Below are positions 4,400-59,951 of a stretch of DNA of 64,000 nt, one piece after another. The translations under genes were made by a program, and so were the position numbers. The notes beneath the pieces are model-generated. The model was not told the origin of the DNA. It searched no databases and saw only the letters and a list, made by a program, of their open reading frames with translations. This DNA is from Octopus vulgaris. Its lineage: Eukaryota. Each line of letters starts with the position of its first letter. The stretch's first letter is position 1. The DNA lies in contig OX597820.1 of NCBI GenBank assembly GCA_951406725.2, forward strand, positions 51,212,001-51,276,000, given 5' to 3'.

Positions 4400-4433
<34 letters not shown>

Positions 4434-4633
4434 CTACAAAATTAGAGAATGGAGAAACATACTTAAATCAATAAAACATCAACTATCCGATGATACTCAA
4501 TCCATACTTTAATACACCATTACATAGGAGTAAAGGCAATATATAAAATGAAATGAGATATACAGTAATAGTAAAAGTAAAAAGATAAAGAGATATAAGT
4601 AAAAAATTACAAATACAATATGCAAATAAATCA

Positions 4634-4748
4634 AAACTGACAGCTGTTTCGGCAGTGAGGACAGTCATACCTCATTTAACCTATAAGCCATAAAGGCAGG
4701 TATAAATGAGGCATTAACAAAGATGCCCCACGGCCTCTTCAGAGAATT
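4634..4748 (-). ncRNA. Type I hammerhead ribozyme with extended stem II (pLTR copy)
   Basis: Reverse complement of the motif at 13716-13830. Confidence 0.72.
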
Positions 4749-5084
4749 AAATTAAATTTGTTATAATAGTGAAAAATATTATATAATCATATACATATAA
4801 ATATAAAAATATAAAAAAGTAAAATATAAAAACTTATACATCATAATGCTACACTTGTATAATATAATACACATTTGTACAAAAAGGAAGGTAACCAGAA
4901 CAAAATAAAACAAAATATATAACAGTGTATATATAATATTAATAAGTACCGATATCATACATATTTAGCTAATAGTTTTTTATAAAAAAAAGGGCTAACA
5001 CATATGGAGATGAAAAATAATAATAATTAAATCCGTGGTACAGTTCATAAAATTCTAAAGCTATAAAAGTTAATAAAAATTACT

Positions 5085-5118
<34 letters not shown>

Positions 5119-6858
5119 GTAATAATAATAGAAAATAATAAAAATAGATACAGTTAAGTTATCACCAAGTCCATCCTTCCAAGATCGAAATAACTATGAG
5201 TTAAGAAATGCTGACCACTAGGTAAAGAAAATTTAGATTAATTCGATTGGCTATTGGTTTGAAATTTAAATCACAAAAGAAAATTATACGGTTGGTTAGT
5301 CAGGGAACGCCAATATTCACACACGCATCTACAGATCAATCGCACATACACACATAGTTATATGTATATACATACACTTGTACATATACATAATCATAAG
5401 CAACAACTAACACTTAGATAAACAAATAGGGAAGCAACCATGCTAACACTAAGTCCTTCAAAATTATAACTGAGCCTCAATAACAAAAAAAGAACCATCC
5501 ATGCATTCTATAAAATATTTAATTAAGATATAGATGTATTTTTAAATATCAGTATGTTACTAATTCAGATAATTATTTCATGGGTAACTTAAAATTTATA
5601 ACACCGGTTTGTTGCAGAGTAAACATACGGTTGTTAGGTTTATCGTAAGTTTGTTATGATTTAAAGTACGCTAAATTATAAAATATAAAATATAAAATAT
5701 ATTAATTTAGATATTATAAATAAGTCACTTATTAACTTAATAAATATAGTGCCAAAATATACCAGTTTAGGCAATAAAAAATAGAGGGGGAAGTATTAAT
5801 GTAAACGCTTATGAGAACATCACAGAAATTTTAAAATTTTAAATAAATTTTATATTATAAAGACTTAAGATGAAAAGAGATAAAATAAATAAAAAGGAAT
5901 AAATACGAAGGAATAAATACGGTTATACACATAATTATAAGTACAAACTAGTATATATGTATTCATATATTATTAAAATTAAATAAAAATAAATGATAGA
6001 TATGTATGTATAAAACCACACCAGTATAAGTAAATAAGTAAAGAATAAATAGGTAACAAATTAAATGACTTGATATGTATGTAAACATCCACACTTAAAT
6101 AGGCAAATAAATAAATAAATAGAAGACTAGATGCAAATATTGATAATATTACAATAAAATGGGAAATAAATAAAAATAAATAAAGTGAATATATATATTT
6201 TATATTGTTGAAAGTAAATATGTATGGAAGGATAGTTTAAAGTACAGATCCAGAGGACTATAGATATAAACTAAATATATGAGGCTGGTAACAATTATAA
6301 AGCAAAATGCATGTAAATGAGAAAATGAAAAAAATGAAAAAGGTTTATCAGTGAATAGCATAAGATACAAATTAAGGTGAGTACAAAAAGACCAAATATA
6401 TAATAAAAACCTTCCAAATCAGCACATACAAAAAACCCATAATCTCAACCTGAACCCACCAAACTCACAAAAGGCTCTCATATATTACATATTATACAAT
6501 ATCATTACATTATCCAGAGCTAGGTATCTAACCAAGATATACATATATACCTTGCAATATACTATGCAATATTGGAAAACTTCAAAAATCACACATTACA
6601 AGGCAAATACCAAAATGAATATGTTATTTTATGTCATATTGCATTTCTCTTAAAAAAAAAAACAAACAAAAACCCACATACAAAAACCAAGAAACCAATA
6701 ATACTAGACACATCCAATTAGTTATTATACAAATGTAGCTATAAAAATTATAAAATTATGAAATTTATAAATTGTATACTTTAGAATTATAGAAGACCAC
6801 AGGTATATTTAGTTAAAGAAGGGAATTAAAAAATTGATAATAGTGGAAGTGCTAAGTT

Positions 6859-9697
6859 CTATTTGAATCTAGAAAAGGTGAACGGTAGCCTATGAATACA
6901 AAAGAAGTTTTTCTCATTAATGTTGTTAATAATTTGCCGACCCGCTTTAATAATGAAGAAAATTTCATTAATACATAGAGAGCATTTTTATTTTTTCCAT
7001 TATACACAGGTGCTGAAGTTAGTATTTTCCAGTTTAATCTAAAATCTAAGTTCTTACTTTTAAGTTCCCAAATATATGCACTTAGCCCTGTAGAGTACAT
7101 TCTATTTTTATTCCTAAAAGTATATCTATGATAATTCCATCTTTGTTTTATGCTATTCATAGTTGCCCCGATATACACTCTACTACTCAATTGTGTATCT
7201 ACAGTGCATTGGTAAACTACCTCCTTCCTGAGGCATTGATTACCAAATACACATTTATTTTTATTTCTGCAATTACAAAGATTAACAGAATGAGGAAATC
7301 TAAGATTGGACACCACCCCTATACTACTATTCACATTATAAGTGTTACAATTGTTATCATCATCCAAACCCAAAATCAACGAATGAGTTAATTCCACATT
7401 ATCGGCTATATTCCTATCACTAGTACTAGTATTGGTAGTAGTGGTATGATCTATTACATTTATATTATCTCTGACAGGTATGGTGCACTCATTATTAGTA
7501 AGGAGGTTGCTCCCATTTGTTCCAAGAAAATTTCTATTCCTATTATTAATGAAGAGGGTAAGTTTTCCTGGTCTAAATTCAATTTTCTATCCTTATAGAA
7601 GTGATCCAGTTTCTTGTTATTAAAAGAGGAGATGATGGTGGCTAGATTATGAGTAATGCTATATCCCACTCTAACAGTACCGTTGTTAATTAAAGGACTA
7701 AATTTATTCCTATCCTTACCAAAATGCCTAAAAATAATATTATGCAAAGCTCTCACTATGTTTGTTTTAATCTGCATTGCATACGGGATAATCAACCAAA
7801 GAGTATCCTTATCAGAATTAGGATTGCCTATAGAATTAATGTTATTTGTAAAAATCCTATTCGTAGACCAACTCATAGGATTACTATTCTTACCACTGTC
7901 ATTGTTATATCTATCTATATCAATATTACCATGGTTATTGCGCAAGTAAACTTTACCATTATCATGTCCACCATAAGTTTTAATTCGTATATTATTATTA
8001 ATATTACTACTACTACTCGTATGTTTAGATCTATTTGAGCTACCGTTCACCTTTCCAAGGTTAACGTCACTTCTACATTTATTATAGGTGTTATCATATA
8101 TTCTGTTTTTACTATTCTTATGTATATTGTTGATTATCCTAAATCTATTTGTGTTGTTCTTGATAGTTCTACCTCCATTAGGGGGTTCCCCTTAGGTATA
8201 AACCAAATCTTACTTTTATATCCTGCCTTAAGTAATGCTGCATTGTATCTATCACAGTGTTTGTTAAAAATTTCCTCGTTTGAGGATAAACTAGAAATTC
8301 TTTGACTAATGCTACGCACTAGTGCATTTTTAATTTGAGGGGGTGATTACTAGAACGGTTAATGTATATTAGGTTAGAATTAGGTTTAATATAGGGTTCA
8401 TGTAAACCATTAGTAATGTTACAATTAACATCTAAATAATTAGCAGAATAATTTTCACTTTCAATGATAATGGATAGGCCGAAGCTTTTAAAAAATTTGT
8501 TTATTCTTTTTTTCAGAAGATCTAATCTCCTATTTGATGTATTCCTAACACAAAATAAGGCGTCATCCCTGTATAATCCGCCTTTTAATTCAGGGAATTC
8601 CCTACTAAAGTTATCTAATAGATACATCCCAACTAGATCAGTCACCTCCGCTGAGTCCGGCGATCCCATTGTGATATCGAACAAGTTGGGTGTGTCCTTT
8701 CTAGCCCAAAGTTTATTATCAAACTCTATTAAAGTTTTCCTGGCTGTTAGTATAACCTTAATCTCCCCCATACTTAATTTAGTGTGTTTTCTAGCAAAAT
8801 TAAGGACTTATTTAATATAATAGGGTTAATTGAAGTGTAATAATTCTGTATATCGAATTGTATAAATTTATTTCTATTATAGCTAAAGTTGTTACTGTCA
8901 CAGACCTTAATGGCAGAAAACCAATCCAAAGCACCCTGAGTATTCTTCCAAAGGTTTAGTTTGATTTTATTGCGGATGGTGGGTAGATATTTATCTAGAA
9001 TGAGTTTACTTAGTCTGCCTAAGTCAGATTTAGTGGGGCAAATTAATCTGACCTGTGTGTTTCCAAGAAAATTCTCTTTATGATCCTTTAGTGTAATTCT
9101 CGGTCTGGATGGGGTGTAGGGTTCCGTTTTTTCTTCTAGGTAGTAGTCAAATATGATTTCTCTGATCTCCAGGTTCAGCTTTCTAAGTGTACTAGAAGGT
9201 ACTACTTTGTATTTCTTGGTTATTTCCTTGTGTAGAAGATCATGATATGCAGTAATGTCAATGTTGTAGATGTTGTTAGTTTTGTCAGAATGTGTTAGAA
9301 TGCCGCTCTTACCTTTGAGAGTTCTAATTAAGTCTTTCAATTCTCTTTGGTGCGGGTTATATCTTAAAGGATGATTTCTAAATTTTATGTTTTTTACAGT
9401 CTCCCATAGTTCTTGTTCAAAATTGTCTAGATGTATATTTGGTGGAGGAGACTTTCTAGATTTAAATGTAGTGCTTGTTAGTTTTAATATTTCTTCATAG
9501 GTGCTTCCAATTCCATTACGGATCGTTTCTCCAGTGTGTTGTTGGTTTATTTTATTATTATAGTTCTCATGGTGGAAAATCCTCCATCTGATCCTATGGA
9601 TGAATTCATTCATTCTATAAATTAGTTCTTTAGTGTAATGGTCTTTGGTAGGGATAGGTACATCCTTCATTGATGAATTGATCAGTATTTTCTCCAT
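6859..9697 (-). pseudogene. PLE RT-GIY-YIG polyprotein, broken by about five 1-nt frameshifts in homopolymer runs
   Basis: FDIQNYYTSI, MGSPDSAEVTDLVG, GLYRDD, CNCR and VVYQ..VYIGAT are present. Frame breaks lie at ~8797, ~8340, ~8185, ~7557 and ~6987. Confidence 0.88.
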
Positions 9698-10210
9698 TCT
9701 TCTAGCAGTAATGATCAAAGGAACAAATATACTACACTAGGGTGTATTCACATGCACTATTAATATTTAGATCAATAAATGGATGCTTATATTACACCAG
9801 TATGAGCAATTCAGGTTCCTCAAAAGATAAATTTAGGTTATAAAATGAGATAGGGGTTGAAAATTCAACCCACCATGGGATAATATATATCCAATATACT
9901 GCTAGATAGGTACCCAACAAAATTAATACATAGATGTTAGAAATTGTCAAGCAATCAGTTCATCTATTGTATTAAATGGGTAAAGGTAATAATATTACCG
10001 TAAATTAATACTACAAAATTAGAGAATGGAGAAACATACTTAAATCAATAAAACATCAACTATCCGATGATACTCAATCCATACTTTAATACACCATTAC
10101 ATAGGAGTAAAGGCAATATATAAAATGAAATGAGATATACAGTAATAGTAAAAGTAAAAAGATAAAGAGATATAAGTAAAAAATTACAAATACAATATGC
10201 AAATAAATCA

Positions 10211-10325
10211 AAACTGACAGCTGTTTCGGCAGTGAGGACAGTCATACCTCATTTAACCTATAAGCCATAAAGGCAGGTATAAATGAGGCATTAACAAAGA
10301 TGCCCCACGGCCTCTTCAGAGAATT
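10211..10325 (-). ncRNA. Type I hammerhead ribozyme with extended stem II (pLTR copy)
   Basis: Reverse complement of the motif at 13716-13830. Confidence 0.72.
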
Positions 10326-10662
10326 AAATTAAATTTGTTATAATAGTGAAAAATATTATATAATCATATACATATAAATATAAAAATATAAAAAAGTAAA
10401 ATATAAAAACTTATACATCATAATGCTACACTTGTATAATATAATACACATTTGTACAAAAAGGAAGGTAACCAGAACAAAATAAAACAAAATATATAAC
10501 AGTGTATATATAATATTAATAAGTACCGATATCATACATATTTAGCTAATAGTTTTTTATAAAAAAAAAGGGCTAACACATATGGAGATGAAAAATAATA
10601 ATAATTAAATCCGTGGTACAGTTCATAAAATTCTAAAGCTATAAAAGTTAATAAAAATTACT

Positions 10663-10696
<34 letters not shown>

Positions 10697-11776
10697 GTAA
10701 TAATAATAGAAAATAATAAAAATAGATACAGTTAAGTTATCACCAAGTCCATCCTTCCAAGATCGAAATAACTATGAGTTAAGAAATGCTGACCACTAGG
10801 TAAAGAAAATTTAGATTAATTCGATTGGCTATTGGTTTGAAATTTAAATCACAAAAGAAAATTATACGGTTGGTTAGTCAGGGAACGCCAATATTCACAC
10901 ACGCATCTACAGATCAATCGCACATACACACATAGTTATATGTATATACATACACTTGTACATATACATAATCATAAGCAACAACTAACACTTAGATAAA
11001 CAAATAGGGAAGCAACCATGCTAACACTAAGTCCTTCAAAATTATAACTGAGCAACAATAACAAAAAAAGAACCATCCATGCATTCTATAAAATATTTAA
11101 TTAAGATATAGATGTATTTTTAAATATCAGTATGTTACTAATTCAGATAATTATTTCATGGGTAACTTAAAATTTATAACACCGGTTTGTTGCAGAGTAA
11201 ACATACGGTTGTTAGGTTTATCGTAAGTTTGTTATGATTTAAAGTACGCTAAATTATAAAATATAAAATATAAAATATATTAATTTAGATATTATAAATA
11301 AGTCACTTATTAACTTAATAAATATAGTGCCAAAATATACCAGTTTAGGCAATAAAAAATAGAGGGGGAAGTATTAATGTAAACGCTTATGAGAACATCA
11401 CAGAAATTTTAAAATTTTAAATAAATTTTATATTATAAAGACTTAAGATGAAAAGAGATAAAATAAATAAAAAGGAATAAATACGAAGGAATAAATACGG
11501 TTATACACATAATTATAAGTACAAACTAGTATATATGTATTCATATATTATTAAAATTAAATAAAAATAAATGATAGATATGTATGTATAAAACCACACC
11601 AGTATAAGTAAATAAGTAAAGAATAAATAGGTAACAAATTAAATGACTTGATATGTATGTAAACATCCACACTTAAATAGGCAAATAAATAAATAAATAG
11701 AAGACTAGATGCAAATATTGATAATATTACAATAAAATGGGAAATAAATAAAAATAAATAAAGTGAATATATATAT

Positions 11777-13345
11777 TTTTGTATGTGGGTTTTTGTTTGT
11801 TTTTTTTTTTTTAAGAGAAATGCAATATGACATAAAATAACATATTCATTTTGGTATTTGCCTTGTAATGTGTGATTTTTGAAGTTTTCCAATATTGCAT
11901 AGTATATTGCAAGGTATATATGTATATCTTGGTTAGATACCTAGCTCTGGATAATGTAATGATATTGTATAATATGTAATATATGAGAGCCTTTTGAGAG
12001 TTTGGTGGGTTCAGGTTGAGATTATGGGTTTTTTGTATGTGCTGATTTGGAAGGTTTTTATTATATATTTGGTCTTTTTGTACTCACCTTAATTTGTATC
12101 TTATGCTATTCACTGATAAACCTTTTTCATTTTTTTCATTTTCTCATTTACATGCATTTTGCTTTATAATTGTTACCAGCCTCATATATTTAGTTTATAT
12201 CTATAGTCCTCTGGATCTGTACTTTAAACTATCCTTCCATACATATTTACTTTCAACAATATAAAATATATATATTCACTTTATTTATTTTTATTTATTT
12301 CCCATTTTATTGTAATATTATCAATATTTGCATCTAGTCTTCTATTTATTTATTTATTTGCCTATTTAAGTGTGGATGTTTACATACATATCAAGTCATT
12401 TAATTTGTTACCTATTTATTCTTTACTTATTTACTTATACTGGTGTGGTTTTATACATACATATCTATCATTTATTTTTATTTAATTTTAATAATATATG
12501 AATACATATATACTAGTTTGTACTTATAATTATGTGTATAACCGTATTTATTCCTTCGTATTTATTCCTTTTTATTTATTTTATCTCTTTTCATCTTAAG
12601 TCTTTATAATATAAAATTTATTTAAAATTTTAAAATTTCTGTGATGTTCTCATAAGCGTTTACATTAATACTTCCCCCTCTATTTTTTATTGCCTAAACT
12701 GGTATATTTTGGCACTATATTTATTAAGTTAATAAGTGACTTATTTATAATATCTAAATTAATATATTTTATATTTTATATTTTATAATTTAGCGTACTT
12801 TAAATCATAACAAACTTACGATAAACCTAACAACCGTATGTTTACTCTGCAACAAACCGGTGTTATAAATTTTAAGTTACCCATGAAATAATTATCTGAA
12901 TTAGTAACATACTGATATTTAAAAATACATCTATATCTTAATTAAATATTTTATAGAATGCATGGATGGTTCTTTTTTTGTTATTGAGGCTCAGTTATAA
13001 TTTTGAAGGACTTAGTGTTAGCATGGTTGCTTCCCTATTTGTTTATCTAAGTGTTAGTTGTTGCTTATGATTATGTATATGTACAAGTGTATGTATATAC
13101 ATATAACTATGTGTGTATGTGCGATTGATCTGTAGATGCGTGTGTGAATATTGGCGTTCCCTGACTAACCAACCGTATAATTTTCTTTTGTGATTTAAAT
13201 TTCAAACCAATAGCCAATCGAATTAATCTAAATTTTCTTTACCTAGTGGTCAGCATTTCTTAACTCATAGTTATTTCGATCTTGGAAGGATGGACTTGGT
13301 GATAACTTAACTGTATCTATTTTTATTATTTTCTATTATTATTAC

Positions 13346-13379
<34 letters not shown>

Positions 13380-14190
13380 AGTAATTTTTATTAACTTTTA
13401 TAGCTTTAGAATTTTATGAACTGTACCACGGATTTAATTATTATTATTTTTCATCTCCATATGTGTTAGCCCTTTTTTTTATAAAAAACTATTAGCTAAA
13501 TATGTATGATATCGGTACTTATTAATATTATATATACACTGTTATATATTTTGTTTTATTTTGTTCTGGTTACCTTCCTTTTTGTACAAATGTGTATTAT
13601 ATTATACAAGTGTAGCATTATGATGTATAAGTTTTTATATTTTACTTTTTTATATTTTTATATTTATATGTATATGATTATATAATATTTTTCACTATTA
13701 TAACAAATTTAATTTAATTCTCTGAAGAGGCCGTGGGGCATCTTTGTTAATGCCTCATTTATACCTGCCTTTATGGCTTATAGGTTAAATGAGGTATGAC
13801 TGTCCTCACTGCCGAAACAGCTGTCAGTTTTGATTTATTTGCATATTGTATTTGTAATTTTTTACTTATATCTCTTTATCTTTTTACTTTTACTATTACT
13901 GTATATCTCATTTCATTTTATATATTGCCTTTACTCCTATGTAATGGTGTATTAAAGTATGGATTGAGTATCATCGGATAGTTGATGTTTTATTGATTTA
14001 AGTATGTTTCTCCATTCTCTAATTTTGTAGTATTAATTTACGGTAATATTATTACCTTTACCCATTTAATACAATAGATGAACTGATTGCTTGACAATTT
14101 CTAACATCTATGTATTAATTTTGTTGGGTACCTATCTAGCAGTATATTGGATATATATTATCCCATGGTGGGTTGAATTTTCAACCCCTA
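11777..14190 (+). repeat. 5' pseudo-LTR (~2.4 kb)
   Basis: Near-identical direct repeat of 17359-19832, starting TTTTGTATGTGGGTTTTTG and ending TTCAACCCCTAT. Confidence 0.9.
13716..13830 (+). ncRNA. Type I hammerhead ribozyme with extended stem II (pLTR copy)
   Basis: CTGAAGA at 13722-13728. Stem II is closed by GGC/GCC and encloses GTGGGGCA/TGTCCTCAC and TGCCTCATTTA/TAAATGAGGTA helices. GAAA at 13814-13817, palindromic stem III ACAGCTGT, GTC cleavage triplet at 13823-13825. Stem I is weak. Confidence 0.75.
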
Positions 14191-14343
14191 TCTCATTTTA
14201 TAACCTAAATTTATCTTTTGAGGAACCTGAATTGCTCATACTGGTGTAATATAAGCATCCATTTATTGATTTAAATATTAATAGTGCATGTGAATACACC
14301 CTAGTGTAGTATATTTGTTCCTTTGATCATTACTGCTAGAAGA

Positions 14344-15909
14344 ATGGAGAAAATACTGATCAATTCATCAATGAAGGATGTACCTATCCCTACCAAAGAC
14401 CATTACACTAAAGAACTAATTTATAGAATGAATGAATTCATCCATAGGATCAGATGGAGGATTTTCCACCATGAGAACTATAATAATAAAATAAACCAAC
14501 AACACACTGGAGAAACGATCCGTAATGGAATTGGAAGCACCTATGAAGAAATATTAAAACTAACAAGCACTACATTTAAATCTAGAAAGTCTCCTCCACC
14601 AAATATACATCTAGACAATTTTGAACAAGAACTATGGGAGACTGTAAAAAACATAAAATTTAGAAATCATCCTTTAAGATATAACCCGCACCAAAGAGAA
14701 TTGAAAGACTTAATTAGAACTCTCAAAGGTAAGAGCGGCATTCTAACACATTCTGACAAAACTAACAACATCTACAACATTGACATTACTGCATATCATG
14801 ATCTTCTACACAAGGAAATAACCAAGAAATACAAAGTAGTACCTTCTAGTACACTTAGAAAGCTGAACCTGGAGATCAGAGAAATCATATTTGACTACTA
14901 CCTAGAAGAAAAAACGGAACCCTACACCCCATCCAGACCGAGAATTACACTAAAGGATCATAAAGAGAATTTTCTTGGAAACACACAGGTCAGATTAATT
15001 TGCCCCACTAAATCTGACTTAGGCAGACTAAGTAAACTCATTCTAGATAAATATCTACCCACCATCCGCAATAAAATCAAACTAAACCTTTGGAAGAATA
15101 CTCAGGGTGCTTTGGATTGGTTTTCTGCCATTAAGGTCTGTGACAGTAACAACTTTAGCTATAATAGAAATAAATTTATACAATTCGATATACAGAATTA
15201 TTACACTTCAATTAACCCTATTATATTAAATAAGTCCTTAATTTTTGCTAGAAAACACACTAAATTAAGTATGGGGGAGATTAAGGTTATACTAACAGCC
15301 AGGAAAACTTTAATAGAGTTTGATAATAAACTTTGGGCTAGAAAGGACACACCCAACTTGTTCGATATCACAATGGGATCGCCGGACTCAGCGGAGGTGA
15401 CTGATCTAGTTGGGATGTATCTATTAGATAACTTTAGTAGGGAATTCCCTGAATTAAAAGGCGGATTATACAGGGATGACGCCTTATTTTGTGTTAGGAA
15501 TACATCAAATAGGAGATTAGATCTTCTGAAAAAAAGAATAAACAAATTTTTTAAAAGCTTCGGCCTATCCATTATCATTGAAAGTGAAAATTATTCTGCT
15601 AATTATTTAGATGTTAATTGTAACATTACTAATGGTTTACATGAACCCTATATTAAACCTAATTCTAACCTAATATACATTAACCGTTCTAGTAATCACC
15701 CCCCTCAAATTAAAAATGCACTAGTGCGTAGCATTAGTCAAAGAATTTCTAGTTTATCCTCAAACGAGGAAATTTTTAACAAACACTGTGATAGATACAA
15801 TGCAGCATTACTTAAGGCAGGATATAAAAGTAAGATTTGGTTTATACCTAAGGGGAACCCCCTAATGGAGGTAGAACTATCAAGAACAACACAAATAGAT
15901 TTAGGATAA
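14344..15909 (+). CDS. PLE reverse transcriptase (N-terminal part of the polyprotein)
   Basis: 528-aa ORF in the track with the first ATG at 14344. Motifs SDKTNN, LKDHKENF..RLICP, FDIQNYYTSI, MGSPDSAEVTDLVG, GLYRDD, NYLDV and YI..SNHP. Confidence 0.9.
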   Translation: MEKILINSSMKDVPIPTKDHYTKELIYRMNEFIHRIRWRIFHHENYNNKINQQHTGETIRNGIGSTYEEILKLTSTTFKSRKSPPPNIHLDNFEQELWETVKNIKFRNHPLRYNPHQRELKDLIRTLKGKSGILTHSDKTNNIYNIDITAYHDLLHKEITKKYKVVPSSTLRKLNLEIREIIFDYYLEEKTEPYTPSRPRITLKDHKENFLGNTQVRLICPTKSDLGRLSKLILDKYLPTIRNKIKLNLWKNTQGALDWFSAIKVCDSNNFSYNRNKFIQFDIQNYYTSINPIILNKSLIFARKHTKLSMGEIKVILTARKTLIEFDNKLWARKDTPNLFDITMGSPDSAEVTDLVGMYLLDNFSREFPELKGGLYRDDALFCVRNTSNRRLDLLKKRINKFFKSFGLSIIIESENYSANYLDVNCNITNGLHEPYIKPNSNLIYINRSSNHPPQIKNALVRSISQRISSLSSNEEIFNKHCDRYNAALLKAGYKSKIWFIPKGNPLMEVELSRTTQIDLG

Positions 15910-17185
15910 TCAACAATATACATAAGAATAGTAAAAACAGAATATATGATAACACCTATAATAAATGTAGAAGTGACGTTAACCTTGGAAAGGTGAACGG
16001 TAGCTCAAATAGATCTAAACATACGAGTAGTAGTAGTAATATTAATAATAATATACGAATTAAAACTTATGGTAGACATGATAATGGTAAAGTTTACTTG
16101 CGCAATAACCATGGTAATATTGATATAGATAGATATAACAATGACAGTGGTAAGAATAGTAATCCTATGAGTTGGTCTACGAATAGGATTTTTACAAATA
16201 ACATTAATTCTATAGGCAATCCTAATTCTGATAAGGATACTCTTTGGTTGATTATCCCGTATGCAATGCAGATTAAAACAAACATAGTGAGAGCTTTGCA
16301 TAATATTATTTTTAGGCATTTTGGTAAGGATAGGAATAAATTTAGTCCTTTAATTAACAACGGTACTGTTAGAGTGGGATATAGCATTACTCATAATCTA
16401 GCCACCATCATCTCCTCTTTTAATAACAAGAAACTGGATCACTTCTATAAGGATAGAAAATTGAATTTAGACCAGGAAAACTTGCCCCTCTTCATTAATA
16501 ATAGGAATAGAAATTTTCTTGGAACAAATGGGAGCAACCTCCTTACTAATAATGAGTGCACCATACCTGTCAGAGATAATATAAATGTAATAGATCATAC
16601 CACTACTACCAATACTAGTACTAGTGATAGGAATATAGCCGATAATGTGGAATTAACTCATTCGTTGATTTTGGGTTTGGATGATGATAACAATTGTAAC
16701 ACTTATAATGTGAATAGTAGTATAGGGGTGGTGTCCAATCTTAGATTTCCTCATTCTGTTAATCTTTGTAATTGCAGAAATAAAAATAAATGTGTATTTG
16801 GTAATCAATGCCTCAGGAAGGAGGTAGTTTACCAATGCACTGTAGATACACAATTGAGTAGTAGAGTGTATATCGGGGCAACTATGAATAGCATAAAACA
16901 AAGATGGAATTATCATAGATATACTTTTAGGAATAAAAATAGAATGTACTCTACAGGGCTAAGTGCATATATTTGGGAACTTAAAAGTAAGAACTTAGAT
17001 TTTAGATTAAACTGGAAAATACTAACTTCAGCACCTGTGTATAATGGAAAAAATAAAAATGCTCTCTATGTATTAATGAAATTTTCTTCATTATTAAAGC
17101 GGGTCGGCAAATTATTAACAACATTAATGAGAAAAACTTCTTTTGTATTCATAGGCTACCGTTCACCTTTTCTAGATTCAAATAG
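15852..17185 (+). CDS. PLE linker + GIY-YIG endonuclease (C-terminal part; track ORF 15993-17192)
   Basis: The frame is open from 15852. It holds the linker WLIIPY..IKTNI..HF..VGYS..N, then CNCR..C...CL, VVYQ..VYIGAT..KQRW..H and LSAYIW. After a 1-nt shift at ~17058 it continues CSLCINE..CIH to TAG at 17183-17185. Confidence 0.87.
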
Positions 17186-17358
17186 AACTTAGCACTTCCA
17201 CTATTATCAATTTTTTAATTCCCTTCTTTAACTAAATATACCTGTGGTCTTCTATAATTCTAAAGTATACAATTTATAAATTTCATAATTTTATAATTTT
17301 TATAGCTACATTTGTATAATAACTAATTGGATGTGTCTAGTATTATTGGTTTCTTGGT

Positions 17359-18916
17359 TTTTGTATGTGGGTTTTTGTTTGTTTTTTTTTTAAGAGAAAT
17401 GCAATATGACATAAAATAACATATTCATTTTGGTATTTGCCTTGTAATGTGTGATTTTTGAAGTTTTCCAATATTGCATAGTATATTGCAAAGTATATAT
17501 GTATATCTTGGTTAGATACCTAGCTCTGGATAATGTAATGATATTGTATAATATGTAATATATGAGAGCCTTTTGTGAGTTTGGTGGGTTTAGGTTGAGA
17601 TTATGGGTTTTTTGTATGTGCTGATTTGGAAGGTTTTTATTATATATTTGGTCTTTTTGTACTCACCTTAATTTGTATCTTATGCTATTCACTGATAAAC
17701 CTTTTTCATTTTTTTCATTTTCTCATTTACATGCATTTTGCTTTATAATTGTTACCAGCCTCATATATTTAGTTTATATCTATAGTCCTCTGGATCTGTA
17801 CTTTAAACTATCCTTCCATACATATTTACTTTCAACAATATAAAATATATATATTCACTTTATTTATTTTTATTTATTTCCCATTTTATTGTAATATTAT
17901 CAATATTTGCATCTAGTCTTCTATTTATTTATTTATTTGCCTATTTAAGTGTGGATGTTTACATACATATCAAGTCATTTAATTTGTTACCTATTTATTC
18001 TTTACTTATTTACTTATACTGGTGTAGTTTTATACATACATATCTATCATTTATTTTTATTTAATTTTAATAATATATGAATACATATATACTAGTTTGT
18101 ACTTATAATTATGTGTATAACCGTATTTATTCCTTCGTATTTATTCCTTTTTATTTATTTTATCTCTTTTCATATTAAGTCTTTATAATATAAAATTTAT
18201 TTAAAATTTCTGTGATGTTCTCATAAGCGTTTACATTAATACTTCCCCCTCTATTTTTTATTGCCTAAACTGGTATATTTTGGCACTATATTTATTAAGT
18301 TAATAAGTGACTTATTTATAATATCTAAATTAATATATTTTATATTTTATATTTTATAATTTAGCGTACTTTAAATCATAACAAACTTACGATAAACCTA
18401 ACAACCGTATGTTTACTCTGCAACAAACCGGTGTTATAAATTTTAAGTTACCCATGAAATAATTATCTGAATTAGTAACATACTGATATTTAAAAATACA
18501 TTTATATCTTAATTAAATATTTTATAGAATGCATGGATGGTTCTTTTTTTGTTATTGAGGCTCAGTTATAATTTTGAAGGACTTAGTGTTAGCATGGTTG
18601 CTTCCCTATTTGTTTATCTAAGTGTTAGTTGTTGCTTATGATTATGTATATGTACAAGTGTATGTATATACATATAACTATGTGTGTATGTGCGATTGAT
18701 CTGTAGATGCGTGTGTGAATATTGGCGTTCCCTGACTAACCAACCGTATAATTTTCTTTTGTGATTTAAATTTCAAACCAATAGCCAATCGAATTAATCT
18801 AAATTTTCTTTACCTAGTGGTCAGCATTTCTTAACTCATAGTTATTTCGATCTTGGAAGGATGGACTTGGTGATAACTTAACTGTATCTATTTTTATTAT
18901 TTTTTATTATTATTAC

Positions 18917-18953
<37 letters not shown>

Positions 18954-19832
18954 AGTAATTTTTATTAACTTTTATAGCTTTAGAATTTTATGAACTGTAC
19001 CACGGATTTAATTATTATTATTTTTCATCTCCATATGTGTTAGCCCTTTTTTTTTATAAAAAAACTATTAGCTAAATATGTATGATATCGGTACTTATTA
19101 ATATTATATATACACTGTTATATATTTTGTTTTATTTTGTTCTGGTTACCTTCCTTTTTGTACAAATGTGTATTATATTATACAAGTGTAGCATTATGAT
19201 GTATAAGTTTTTATATTTTACTTTTTTATATTTTTATATTTATATGTATATGATTATATAATATTTTTCACTATTATAACAAATTTAATTTAATTCTCTG
19301 AAGAGGCCGTGGGGCATCTTTGTTAATGCCTCATTTATACCTGCCTTTATGGCTTATAGGTTAAATGAGGTATGACTGTCCTCACTGCCGAAACAGCTGT
19401 CAGTTTTGATTTATTTGCATATTGTATTTGTAATTTTTTACTTATATCTCTTTATCTTTTTACTTTTACTATTACTGTATATCTCATTTCATTTTATATA
19501 TTGCCTTTACTCCTATGTAATGGTGTATTAAAGTATGGATTGAGTATCATCGGATAGTTGATGTTTTATTGATTTAAGTATGTTTCTCCATTCTCTAATT
19601 TTGTAGTATTAATTTACGGTAATATTATTACCTATTAATACAATAGATGAACTGATTGCTTGACAATTTCTAACATCTATGTATTAATTTTGTTGGGTAC
19701 CTATACCCATTTAATACAATAGATGAACTGATTGCTTGACAATTTCTAACATCTATGTATTAATTTTGTTGGGTACCTATCTAGCAGTATATTGGATATA
19801 TATTATCCCATGGTGGGTTGAATTTTCAACCC
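17359..19832 (+). repeat. 3' pseudo-LTR / long AT-rich 3' UTR
   Basis: Direct repeat of 11777-14190. It has an extra ~70 bp tandem duplication near its end. Confidence 0.9.
19292..19406 (+). ncRNA. Type I hammerhead ribozyme with extended stem II (pLTR copy)
   Basis: CTGAAGA at 19298, GAAA at 19390 and GTC at 19399-19401. Same sequence as the 13716 copy. Confidence 0.75.
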
Positions 19833-19984
19833 CTATATATATTATATATATATATACATATAAATATATATATATATATGTATTAAATATATTATATTTT
19901 CTGAATCTTCAGATTTTAATATGCTAGACCACTGGTTTTAAATTGATATTACTCACTTTTTTCACCCTTATTATTTTAAATTTA

Positions 19985-21676: not shown

Positions 21677-21879
21677 TTATTATATAGAAGGATCATCTAC
21701 AGGACTAGAACTGTTTCATTCAAGAGAAATCTTCAGGAAGCTCTGAGCTTCCTGAAGATTTCTCTTGAATGAAACAGTTCTAGTCCTGTAGAAGCTCCTT
21801 CTATATAATAAATTAATTTTACTCTGCTATGTATTGAGTACCTTATTTACTGTGGTTAACCCCGAATCAACCCGGGACC

Positions 21880-30913: not shown

Positions 30914-31212
30914 TTGCTACAATTACTCGCCAAGATACACCTTGCGTCCAAGGGCGAGTGAAGGATATCAGATGTTACGTTATAACTCAAAACCTGGGGA
31001 GGCGGAAAGTGGCAGGGGTAGTAGCGAATTATCTTCATGTAATGCAACATATACATTTAAATTCATAGGTTTTCTAAGGATGTGTACAGTAGTAGTCAGC
31101 ACAATCTTTTGGATTTCCCTGAGACATCATTCTCCTGGGATAATATCTACATGTTTCTGACATCCCTTTCTTAACATAACTCGGGCACCTATTATTATTA
31201 TTACTATTATTA

Positions 31213-32362
31213 TTCAGTAGTTTTATTTTTATAGCGTGCTTTCACTTCACTACCGAGCGCAGCTCTGTGTGCCTTGGGTATGTGCTGTGATTTGTTGTGA
31301 TGCTCTGATGGTTATTGTATGGAAAGTGTTCTGCGTAGGATGTGGGCAGTGCCTAGTAGTGCAATTTTCTGTATGTTATATGTGTTTGTAAGTCCTGGTG
31401 TTTTTGTTATGTATTTGTCTGAATATTTTTTTATCATGCCTAATGCACCTACTATGATAGGAATTGTTTCTGTTTTCAGATTCCACATTCTAGTTACCTC
31501 TATTTCCAGGTCTTTGTATTTTGAGAGTTTCTCCATTTCTTTTAGAGACACGTTGTCATCTGCCGGTATTGATACATCAATTAAAAAGCATTTTTTTCTT
31601 CATGATCTCTGACAACTATATCTGGTCTGTTGGCCTTAATTTCTCTATCTGTGTGTATCGGCATATCCCAGAGTATGGTTGCTTTCTCGTTTTCTGTGAC
31701 CTTTTCTGGTGTGTGCCTATACCATCTTTTTTCTGTTGTTATTCCATAATGTTGGCATAGCTTCCAATGTATGTAGGTTCCAACTCTGTCATGTCTGTGA
31801 ATATATTCCTTCTTAGCCAGGACTGGGCAGCTAGAGATAATATGATTTATTGTTTCTTGTCCATCTCCACATATTCTGCAGTTACTTGTAATATTTCTTT
31901 TCATTACATGTTTTTGGTAATTTCTGGTGGGGAGGCTTTGGTCTTGTGCTGCAATTAAACATCCCTGTTTCTGCTTTGAGTCCTGAGCTTCTCAACCATT
32001 GCTGGGATTTTTCTTTGTCTATTTCTTTTGCGTTTAGTTTAGTGCAGTATTTACCATGAAGGGGCTTTTCTTGCCATCGTTTTATCATGGTTCGTTGCTG
32101 TTCTGTTTTTAGTTTGGATTTCATTTGTTTTATAGCTTTTGTTGTTTCTTCATCTTCTTCTTCTTCTTCTTTATGTTTATTAGGTGGTATGATTTCTTGT
32201 TTGTATTTGTCAGCTTCCTTAAATACTGAGAACAGTTTTTTGTTTTGCTCGTGTTTTGCCGCTATCTGGATCAGTTTTCCTTCCTTCTGAAGTAGATATT
32301 TTTGCAGTCCTATGGTGGTTATTTTATAGTAGTTTTCCAGCTGTATAAGGCCTCTACCACCT
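31213..32362 (-). mobile_element. 5'-truncated R4/Dong-like non-LTR retrotransposon (RLE type), family 1
   Basis: W..KPLHG, LKAET, zinc knuckle CRICG..ETINHIISSC, RHD, and RLE motif RPDIVV..LIDVSIP..EKLSKY. Both ends lie in (TAA)n. Confidence 0.88.
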
Positions 32363-32369
32363 CTACTAC

Positions 32370-32434
<65 letters not shown>

Positions 32435-32442
32435 TTATTATT

Positions 32443-32752
32443 CAGTAGTTTTATTTTTATTTTTATAGCGTGCTTTCACTTCACTACCGAGCACAGCTCT
32501 GTGTGCCTTGGGTATGTGCTGTGATTTGTTGTGATGCTCTGATGGTTATTGTATGGAAAGTGTTCTGCGTAGGATGTGTGCAGTGCCCAGTAGTGCAATT
32601 TTCTGTATGTTATATGTGTTTGTAAGTCCTGGTGTTTTTGTTATGTATTTGTCTGAATATTTTTTTATCATGCCTAATGCACCTACTATGATAGGAATTG
32701 TTTCTGTTTTCAGATTCCACATTCTAGTTACCTCTATTTCCAGGTCTTTGTA
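32443..32752 (-). mobile_element. R4/Dong-like 3' fragment, family 1
   Basis: Near-identical to 31215-31522 and flanked by (TAA)n. Confidence 0.88.
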
Positions 32753-32774
32753 TTTTTATTATTATTATTATTAT

Positions 32775-33101
32775 TCTATGTTTGACGTTTGCTTTACATT
32801 TGCACAAGCTGGCTCCAAGTCTCACCCAAAGACCTCAAGAGACAACAAGTTGGAAGATCATGTTGGTGTTATGCCTAGGGTGCCATATATTTGGTTTTGT
32901 ACTTATTGTTCTACTAGTGAATGCCTAAAGAATCATACGAAAATTATGTTTGTTTTAAAACTTGAGACTACAAAGAAAGTATTTTGCGTAGGATATGAGC
33001 AGTTCCCATGAGCACTATCTTTTGAATTTCTGCAATTTTGGGGTTTCCTGGTATCTCAGTTAGGTAGCAATCAGCCCCTTTTGCTATCATTCCCAGGGCC
33101 C
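32775..33101 (-). mobile_element. R4/Dong-like 3' fragment, family 2
   Basis: Homologous to 33316-33632 and flanked by (TAA)n. Confidence 0.8.
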
Positions 33102-33315
<214 letters not shown>

Positions 33316-33316
<1 letters not shown>

Positions 33317-34045
33317 TTTTGACTTTTGCTTTATATTTGTACAAGTTTGCTCCAAGTCTCACCCAGAGACCTCAAGTGACAACAGGTTGAAATTTTGTGT
33401 CGTTGTTATGCCTAGTGTGCCATATATTTGGTTTTGTATTTAGTGTTGTACTAGTGAATGTCTAAAATAAAACAAAATTATGTTTGTTTTAAAACTTGAG
33501 ATTACATAGAAAGTATTTTGCGTAGGATATAAGCAGTTGCCATGAGCACTATGTTTTGAATTTCTGCAATTTTGGGGTTTCCTGGTATCTGAGTTTGGTA
33601 GCAATCAACCCCTTTTGCTATCATTCCCAGGGCACCTATGACAACATGTATTGTTTTAGTCTTCACGTTCCACATTTTGCTGATTTCTATTTCAAGATCT
33701 TTATATTTGCTCAGTTTTTGGTAGGTCTTGACAGATACGTGTATATCGATTGGGACAGTCATATCAATGAGGAGGCATGTTCTTTGTTTGAAGTCTTTCA
33801 ATATGATGTCTGGCCTATTTGTATCTTACTGTCAGTTTGGATGGAGAGGTTCCAGAGGAATGAGATGTGGACATTTTGAAGCACTGGAGGTGGTTTGTGT
33901 TCCCACCAGTTTTTTTCATGGGGCAAATCCAGATTTTTGCAGATTACCCAGTGGATATATTGTGCAGCTCTATCATGCCTGTTGAGATACACTGTAGGCG
34001 CTAGAAGACTGCACTTGGAGACAACATGATCAATGGTTTCATTTT
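33316..34045 (-). mobile_element. R4/Dong-like 3' fragment, family 2
   Basis: ETIDHVVS, YLNRHD..YIHW, and LLIDMTVP..KLSKYKDLEIE..VVIGALG. Confidence 0.85.
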
Positions 34046-46447: not shown

Positions 46448-47053
46448 ATGGCTAAGAAGGAATATATTCACAGACATGACAGAGTTGGAACCTACATACA
46501 TTGGAAGCTATGCCAACATTATGGAATAACAACAGAAACAAGATGGTATAGGCACACACCAGAAAAGGTCACAGAAAACGAGAAAGCAACCATACTCTGG
46601 GATATGCCGATACACACAGATAGAGAAATTAAGGCCTACAGACCAGATATAGTTGTCAGAGATCATGAAGAAAAAAAATGCTTTCTAATTGATGTATCAA
46701 TACCGGCTGATGACAACGTGTCTCTAAAAGAAATGGAGAAACTCTCAAAATACAAAGACCTGGAAATAGAGGTAAACAGAATGTGGAATCTAAAAACAGA
46801 AACAATTCCTATCATAGTAGATGCATTAGGCATGATAAAAAAATATTCAGACAAATACATAACAAAAACACTAGGACTTACAAACACATAACATACAGAA
46901 AATTGCACTACTAGGCACTGCACACATCCTACGCAGAACACTTTCCATACAATAACCATCAGAGCATCACAACAAATCACAGCACATACCTAAGGCACAC
47001 AGAGCTGCGCTCGGTAGTGAAGTGAAATCACGCTATAAAAATAAAACTACTGA
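46448..47053 (+). mobile_element. R4/Dong-like 3' fragment, family 1
   Basis: ORF 46439-46891 (RHD, RPDIVV..LIDVSIP). Near-identical inverse of 31215-31820. (TAA)n on both sides. Confidence 0.9.
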
Positions 47054-47094
47054 ATAATAATAATAATAATAACAATAATAATAATAATCTACGT

Positions 47095-59356: not shown

Positions 59357-59582
59357 ATATATATTAATAATAAATATTAGGGAATAAATCCAAACTTACA
59401 GGGAAAAATCAGATTTAAGATTGAATCCAATTTTATAGTAAAATATTATATTATATTAAATTAGAGACAAAACCACTATTAGGAAAATCATACAATGAAA
59501 AACTTAAGCCAATACATAAGATTATTTAATTTATATTATTTAAATATATAACAAAATTATTAAAAAAATATAATTAATATAA

Positions 59583-59646
59583 CACTACAATCGTTTCATG
59601 GCTGTTAACTTCTTTAAATTTTCGAGTTACAGTCATTCATCAGGTG
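59583..59646 (-). ncRNA. Type I hammerhead ribozyme (inverted copy)
   Basis: Reverse complement of 59704-59767, with stem III CGATTG. Confidence 0.65.
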
Positions 59647-59703
59647 GTTTAAATATTTATCTTGGCGAGGTTTAAACAATGATAAATATCTAAATATTTA
59701 AAC

Positions 59704-59767
59704 CACCTGATGAATGACTGTAACTCGAAAATTTAAAGAAATTAACAGCCATGAAACGATCGTAGTG
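59704..59767 (+). ncRNA. Type I hammerhead ribozyme with long stem II
   Basis: CAC-CTGATGA-ATGACTGTAA..TTAACAGCCAT-GAAA-CGATCG-TA-GTG, with palindromic stem III ACGATCGT. Confidence 0.72.
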
Positions 59768-59899
59768 TTATATTAATTATATATTTAAAATAATTTTGTT
59801 ATATATTTAAATAATATAAATTAAATAATCTTATGTATTGGCTTAAGTTTTTCATTGTATGATTTGCCTAATAGTGGTTTTGTCTCTAATTTAATATAA

Positions 59900-59951
<52 letters not shown>

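Follow-up and report, generated by a model that had tools for sequence, protein, structure and literature searches.

A predicted hammerhead ribozyme with a long, structurally maintained stem II in a Hydra-clade Penelope-like element of Octopus vulgaris

The locus: a two-armed insertion with four hammerheads

The window, a 64,000-nt stretch of Octopus vulgaris DNA, contains an insertion of a young Hydra-clade Penelope-like element (PLE) that is present in hundreds of copies (Table 1). The insertion consists of two arms in inverted orientation, each exceeding one unit in length, and the left arm is 99.6% identical to positions 12263-19609 over 7.3 kb. Four identical copies of a hammerhead ribozyme had been predicted here, and their identity was 100% over 150 nt in a self-comparison of the window; because a single insertion in (TA)n with two arms makes up the locus, two of them sit on the minus strand, and the four are not independent of one another. 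An assembly artefact was rejected as the source of the inversion, as there are 11 mismatches and 9 gaps between the arms and many divergent minus/plus pairs occur genome-wide. A genome scan for the motif gave 722 first-look candidates, of which 40 were scored and all were identical. The right arm's 3' hairpin region also contains a 77-nt tandem duplication (19629-19780).

Table 1. Features of the insertion, in window coordinates
Feature	Position	Strand	Details
Left arm, inverted copy	4431..11779	-	inner 3' end in (TA)n, equivalent to 14033
Identical hammerhead, left arm's downstream copy	4634..4748	-	C3 4742, C17 4639
Identical hammerhead, left (inverted) arm's upstream copy	10211..10325	-	C3 10319, C17 10216
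Right arm, about 1.4 units	11776..19836	+	outer 3' end in (TA)n
Type I hammerhead, right arm's upstream copy	13716..13830	+	core and fold; C3 13722, C17 13825
Weak stem I of 13716..13830	13720-13721 paired with 13826-13827	+	
Core CUGAAGA of 13716..13830	13722-13728		
Stem II rod, 85 nt	13729..13813	+	MFE fold
Stem II rod helices	13729-31/13811-13; 13733-40/13801-09; 13751-61/13786-96; 13763-66/13782-85		
Stem II rod apical helix	13767-69/13775-77	+	not conserved between families
GAA of 13716..13830	13814-13816		
Stem III of 13716..13830	13817-13824	+	palindromic
Predicted cut of 13716..13830	after C17 at 13825	+	
Hairpin cluster	14040..14203	+	between two element 3' ends (14033, ~14203); fold z = -3.8
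RT part of PLE ORF	14305..15909	+	first Met 14344; RWR, DKT and YRDD motifs
Linker and GIY-YIG endonuclease part	15852..17192	+	other frame; CNC-x5-C linker
Identical hammerhead, right arm's downstream copy	19292..19406	+	C3 19298, C17 19401

The two plus-strand hammerheads lie 5576 nt apart, which is the unit length and matches the predicted unit-length RNA of about 5.6 kb, although the ORF that was to be contained whole in this RNA is frameshifted in the window copy. Loss of 1 nt from a C-run near 15860 breaks it, and a second frameshift near the end of the endonuclease deletes the CxxC/CxH end that is present in the intact copy L073; the minus-arm ORF is in four pieces. In L073 the frame runs without interruption for 960 codons and includes the CxxC and CxH motifs, and a 534-codon frame is common to at least 10 copies. 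The frameshift between RT and endonuclease (15858-15862) recurs in at least 10 near-identical copies (L031-L040), and in other subfamilies the ORF breaks near codon 470. These shared frameshifts and breaks suggest that amplification of defective subfamilies took place in trans.

The carrier displays the features of the Hydra clade, namely RWR (for RWK) and DKT in place of DKG, an endonuclease of the GIY-YIG type at the C-terminus with a CxCx5C linker and CxxC and CxH around E and N (in copy L073), and a pLTR tandem inserted in (TA)n with an inverted partner. Published Hydra elements are alike in their RWK, DKT and CxCx5C motifs and in an inverted, 5'-truncated partner (Craig et al. 2021, PMC8557442). 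They are generally shorter than 3 kb (PMC8557442), whereas the 5.6-kb unit here has an ORF of about 950 aa; a size below 3 kb and a canonical short-stem hammerhead are a tendency of the clade and not a strict criterion, and the 5576-nt unit and its 85-nt stem II depart from it. Membership of Naiad was rejected on the C-terminal position of the endonuclease, and a non-LTR retrozyme, which is a short non-coding tandem unit, was rejected as the unit encodes RT-EN. Pfam returned no domain in the carrier ORF, and the best named database relatives are labelled as Octopus sinensis (100% across 37% of the query), Argonauta and O. bimaculoides.

Within the hammerhead, the core nucleotides C3-U4-G5-A6-N7-G8-A9, G12-A13-A14, A15.1-U16.1 and H17 are all present, as is G10.1-C11.1, and three helices surround the core, with stem I open and stem III forming only as an intermolecular palindrome. 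The core check and the predicted fold bear out the intact core, palindromic stem III and weak stem I of the original prediction and support its assignment as a type I hammerhead of a PLE pLTR; all five stem II helices that it named recur in the MFE fold (z = -4.4; 0 of 200 shuffles as stable). The three basal pairs of stem II each had a probability of at least 0.97 in the ensemble prediction. Stem III, ACAGCUGU, is a perfect palindrome with a predicted duplex energy of -11.1 kcal/mol and a pairing probability of about 0.001 in the monomer, while stem I comprises two Watson-Crick pairs (P ~0.6) followed by U.U mismatches, and the probability predicted for the active fold of the monomer is about 1e-4 to 5e-4. 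At 4-9 bp from the core, several families carry a bulge as well as a mismatch, and canonical loops for a loop 1-loop 2 contact are absent. Across families the core is conserved, with U4C in the B families; this variant (CCGA) occupies whole families (L066, L069, L078, L368-L372).

The A9-to-G12 interval of 85 nt has a GC content of 46%, against 20-27% in the flanks. The GC richness ascribed to stem II is family-specific, with values from 27 to 46% across nine families. Over positions 1-30000, none of the 144 Rfam matches with E up to 5 belonged to a hammerhead family, which is likely due to the length of the insert, and 85 nt also exceeds the 7-17 nt spacer of the core search by Craig et al. 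(PMC8557442), in line with the expectation that standard descriptors would miss the motif.

Length and pairing of stem II across families

A long stem II (51-112 nt) is a mark of one Hydra-clade RT lineage. ORF-linked families (36-83% identity) had stems II of 51, 55-56, 59-61, 85-86, 100 and 112 nt, the 112-nt copy (L061) having a damaged core. The RT trees comprised genome, database and metagenome relatives only, without a published Hydra reference or outgroup, and in a midpoint-rooted tree of 70 rows, with redundant rows and loci lacking a hammerhead left out, the long-stem families of the genome formed one clade with Argonauta proteins (SH-aLRT 93). Host and lineage are only partly separated, since the clade includes these Argonauta proteins and a family with a 12-nt stem II from this genome branches outside it.

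Among 77 metagenomic loci encoding related RTs, a descriptor scan detected a hammerhead in 52, with stems II of 10-29 nt, and none in the remaining 25, some of which are short contigs. The stem II here is three to eight times as long as in such relatives of other hosts. A laxer scan of the same 77 loci, which detects the window motif, gave no credible long stem II; its single long candidate lay inside an ORF, at a locus that also has an ordinary hammerhead. Metagenome contigs scanned with a pattern allowing a gap of 45-75 nt gave 0 matches. In the genome, a pattern search gave 81 matches with inserts over 100 nt, and a pattern with a 6-72 nt gap gave 302 (mostly of about 50-60 nt among the 100 matches listed), both with 0 matches for the reversed pattern; as the first pairs of stem II, or stems I and III, were prescribed by the patterns themselves, the matches are not usable as evidence for those positions.

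A clade with AU-rich stems II of 50-60 nt had no ORF link at 13 of 13 extended loci (L141-L153), which may represent non-autonomous repeats or copies that were truncated. Near long-stem elements (L061:44-183, L079:289-428, L146), a repeat was observed that has their stem I/III context and a stem II of 21-25 nt; it may be a non-autonomous relative. A young RT family with 727 codons (G000:C12:36373381-36375465, L398, and about 24 near-identical places), in which the scanner found no hammerhead, branches near the metagenomic short-stem group.

The rod is structurally maintained: it shows compensatory changes and stays conserved within a saturated UTR. In a structure-blind MAFFT alignment of 22 sequences, selected from subfamilies A to C, 84.6% of the cells paired under a structure derived from one member of family A. 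Both sides had changed in 38 cells, as against 17.4 ± 3.1 in shuffled and at most 15 in slid controls; relatedness inflates these cell counts, and the covarying pairs (8) and pair types were no higher than in shuffles. The double changes fell mostly in the middle helix (5 pairs, 20-35 nt from the core) and where GGCA/UGUC alternates with GAUA/UAUC. Families A and A2 were 81-83% identical in the insert, with a single indel, compared with 51-63% in the flanks, which is the shuffle level. The D/E families have kept an 11-bp basal helix, with a UGCCUA/UAGGCA helix that is invariant or nearly so; RNAalifold on all 35 sequences yielded no common rod, because these families are out of register with A-C. 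Inserts of nine family representatives folded with z from -2.5 to -6.5, and many individual old copies of 50-60 nt folded no better than shuffles. Judged from the differences listed, contigs under the organism labels B, C and D covered the motif nearly unchanged and thus added no covariation. Together, the alignment, identity and fold tests indicate that pairing is conserved, and that length, tip and GC content are not. The compensatory changes and the conserved island agree with the proposal that the stem II insert is conserved and covaries across related families; the motif and its structurally maintained long stem II are real. A splice site or poly(A) signal was rejected as a general role of stem II, as AAUAAA was found in 4 of 16 families or loci (L375, L390, L391 and L089) and is absent from family A.

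It is possible, if rather unlikely, that the ribozyme is real and its extra length tolerated baggage, where a closed basal helix has grown through hairpin-preserving duplications and only the base matters. Lengths from 51 to 112 nt and the lack of shared insert sequence between distant families are consistent with such growth, as are an apical helix that is just 54.5% paired, an internally deleted version at three loci (C3:74914960, C5:143259846 and C6:14360872) and microsatellite insertions in single copies (L090, L091). The concentration of double changes in the middle helix, well away from the core, nevertheless argues against it, as does the conservation of the whole insert between A and A2; moreover, no short-stem ORF-linked family was seen in the long-stem clade.

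Ends of element copies and the RNA template

The 3' ends of the two arms are equivalent to 14033 and ~14203, about 210 and 380 nt past C17, and contig depth drops correspondingly after 14043 and 14213. Each arm, furthermore, reads through two intact cut sites. Because of these 3' ends and this read-through, the linear RNA 13826-19401, which the original prediction expected to be released by cleavage at 13825 and 19401, is excluded as the template, while an uncut multimer or a re-ligated circle can serve. This agrees with the Poseidon element PAc of Anolis, where reverse transcription is initiated internally on RNA that has not been processed and the hammerhead requires protein for cleavage (PMC11167929), and with the circular RNA proposed by Cervera and de la Pena 2014 (PMC4209133). 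By analogy with PAc (PMC11167929), the hairpins at 14040..14203 are a candidate region for RT initiation.

The 5' junctions of truncated copies were compared with the predicted cut site. In family A, 75 of 96 copies were mapped by script; the other 21 were omitted because they were considered intact, to carry an internal deletion, or ambiguous at the edge of the interval. Sixty of the 75 junctions lay at +1 to +14 and 7 at -14 to -1, with none at -3 to -1; AT microhomology and fold-back junctions inflate the counts at +8 to +14, and one row at +13 is an internal deletion. Six of the 75 fell exactly at +1, a peak with P = 0.011 at the control rate, 0.10 at the rate of the control hot spot and 0.5 at the local rate. 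The family B set comprised 69 junctions at 67 loci from 84 rows, including about 7 non-truncations, with 40 junctions at +1 to +14 versus 20 at -14 to -1, 6 at +1 (two from one locus) and none at +2. Another 6 lay at -1/-2, where TA microhomology makes positions -2 to +1 inseparable. None of the mapped 5' ends of ORF-bearing copies was at +1, and for contigs guessed to derive from RNA, which are unable to show ends, neither joints nor end pile-ups were listed at the cut site. The step in junction density at the cut site is hence clear in family A and weaker in B, and the exact-site peak by itself is weak. Judged from these genomic sequences, the 5' ends of truncated copies are suggestive of a footprint of partial in vivo cleavage at the predicted site.

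A further explanation, which appears very unlikely, is that cutting in vivo has ceased, the fold serving solely as a processing signal or a roadblock for the RT, and that the junction step arises from sequence composition. The very low predicted activity of the monomer and the read-through of intact cut sites are compatible with this, and AT-rich junction hot spots do occur elsewhere at about 2.4 per nt by hand count: a downstream control of 34 nt held 44-49 junctions, about 24 of them in one 11-nt AT stretch (hand count, 70 rows). An AT-rich stretch of 39 nt upstream of the motif, on the other hand, held only about 15 (hand count, first 100 of 209 rows). A roadblock should moreover make ends accumulate at -12 to -15, the base of stem II, and family A has none there; the core is invariant or nearly so in families whose flanks are saturated.

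Role of the rod and relation to known hammerheads

The explanation considered probable is a type I pLTR hammerhead of a Hydra-clade PLE whose stem II has grown into a rod in one RT lineage, and which likely cuts partially, as a dimer or helped by protein. Selection on the rod would act mainly on its stable fold, which would hold the G10.1-C11.1 base of stem II in place within a long, very AU-rich UTR while leaving its tip free to vary, and stem III would be formed by palindrome pairing between two copies. Uncut multimers or re-ligated circles would be the RNA on which reverse transcription begins, in the hairpins 200-380 nt 3' of the cut, and a start on such a multimer or circle could yield two-armed insertions of more than one unit. 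On a cut template, the RT would instead run off the 5' end, giving copies that begin at or just after N1.1. A folding scaffold seems the most likely role of the rod, with baggage and protein docking as its rivals. The earlier suggestion that the rod compensates for a weak stem I is doubtful as a general reason, since long stems II also occur beside stems I of 4-5 bp. Dimer dependence (PMC4209133) and protein-assisted cleavage (PMC11167929) have been reported for other PLE hammerheads, and cleavage of the Anolis PAc hammerhead was dispensable for insertion in vitro (PMC11167929).

Docking, in line with the RT-binding role raised in the original prediction, would make the rod a binding site for RT-EN or a host dsRNA-binding protein, triggering cleavage or recruiting the template. 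Rod length does track the RT lineage, and the requirement of the PAc hammerhead for its protein (PMC11167929) offers a parallel. Distant families, however, share no rod sequence, and the 3' ends of copies map to the different hairpin cluster downstream; such a role appears unlikely.

One run guessed to be RNA (X4) carried A-to-G differences at 13787, 13796 and 13817 (A15.1) in two low-depth contigs (summed depth 4.4), which over 13749-13857 also contained single A-to-G changes elsewhere and one T-to-G. Three other runs that were compared lacked the changes at these three positions, and two short patterns containing them had no match in the assembly. ADAR editing is extensive in cephalopods. 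The cluster fits ADAR editing, but it comes from one run, of another individual, at error-prone depth, and the inverted arms are themselves able to form dsRNA. A more elaborate and decidedly improbable proposal is that the long stem II of one octopod lineage of PLEs acts as a control arm. This arm would dock the RT of the element itself, thereby controlling cutting and circularisation, and would expose the ribozyme, including the catalytic A15.1, to host ADAR editing as an off-switch, with the cut leaving its footprint in the 5' ends.

Dimer-cleaving variants of minimal PLE hammerheads have reportedly been described by Lunse et al. The element resembles the published hammerheads of the Hydra clade in type I topology, location in the 3' UTR/pLTR and (TA)n target, and Hydra-1_aMil, Penelope-1_NV and the SK families have the same ACAG/CUGU stem III (Craig et al. 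2021, PMC8557442). It differs in stem II, which in the 26 Hydra rows from that source has 3-7 bp with loops of 3-10 nt and spans at most ~26 nt, as opposed to 85 nt here and 51-112 nt in the lineage; Hydra-1_oBim has ~23 nt in comparison with the 85 nt of the octopus element (PMC8557442). The minimal PLE hammerheads of Cervera and de la Pena 2014 (PMC4209133) share the weak stem I, palindromic stem III, G10.1-C11.1 and predicted dimer dependence, but their "larger than usual" helix II is 6-8 bp, whereas a rod of ~30 bp with internal loops is found here. A partial precedent for a long stem II is PLE-X1_sMoe of Selaginella, with 9 bp and a 35-nt loop (~53 nt), flagged as non-canonical (PMC8557442); these plant elements are unrelated and EN-minus, and their stem II is shorter and listed as a loop, not as a covarying rod (PMC8557442). 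The Anolis PAc element is alike in its tandem organisation and in genomic 3' ends downstream of the hammerhead at two positions, and unlike in a short stem II that overlaps the start codon (PMC11167929). For PAc, no RNA ends were found at the cut site, and the accessible text of PMC11167929 gives no account of a genomic 5'-end footprint. The literature search found no account of a PLE hammerhead lineage with a long stem II, and a closer precedent could sit in papers or supplements beyond that search. PLE hammerheads in general are known, and what appears to be new is the lineage with stems II of 51-112 nt.

PLE hammerheads cleave weakly in vitro, and their cleavage is dispensable in the sole reconstituted system. 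A young family of hundreds of copies offers a countable, genome-wide read-out, with 5' ends just past the cut and 3' ends beyond it, which points to uncut or circular templates. The existence of a lineage with such long stems II implies that model- and descriptor-based surveys undercount animal hammerheads, and the lineage provides a natural length series for probing the role of stem II.

Further repeats were observed in the window. At 21690-21810, two short fragments, each bearing a hammerhead whose stem II is 12 nt and whose stem III is long, form an inverted pair in (TA)n; the palindrome accounts for a below-threshold mir-3199 match in Rfam, and the motif also occurs upstream of the RT in another Hydra-type family (L399, L400). 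A second two-armed inverted insertion in (TA)n spans 59434-59900, with a hammerhead-like motif with a 39-nt stem II in each arm (C3 at 59707 on the plus and 59643 on the minus strand). Other dispersed and inverted repeats, 340-630 nt in length and containing ORFs of 150-200 codons, are located at 31190-33639 and 46449-47088.
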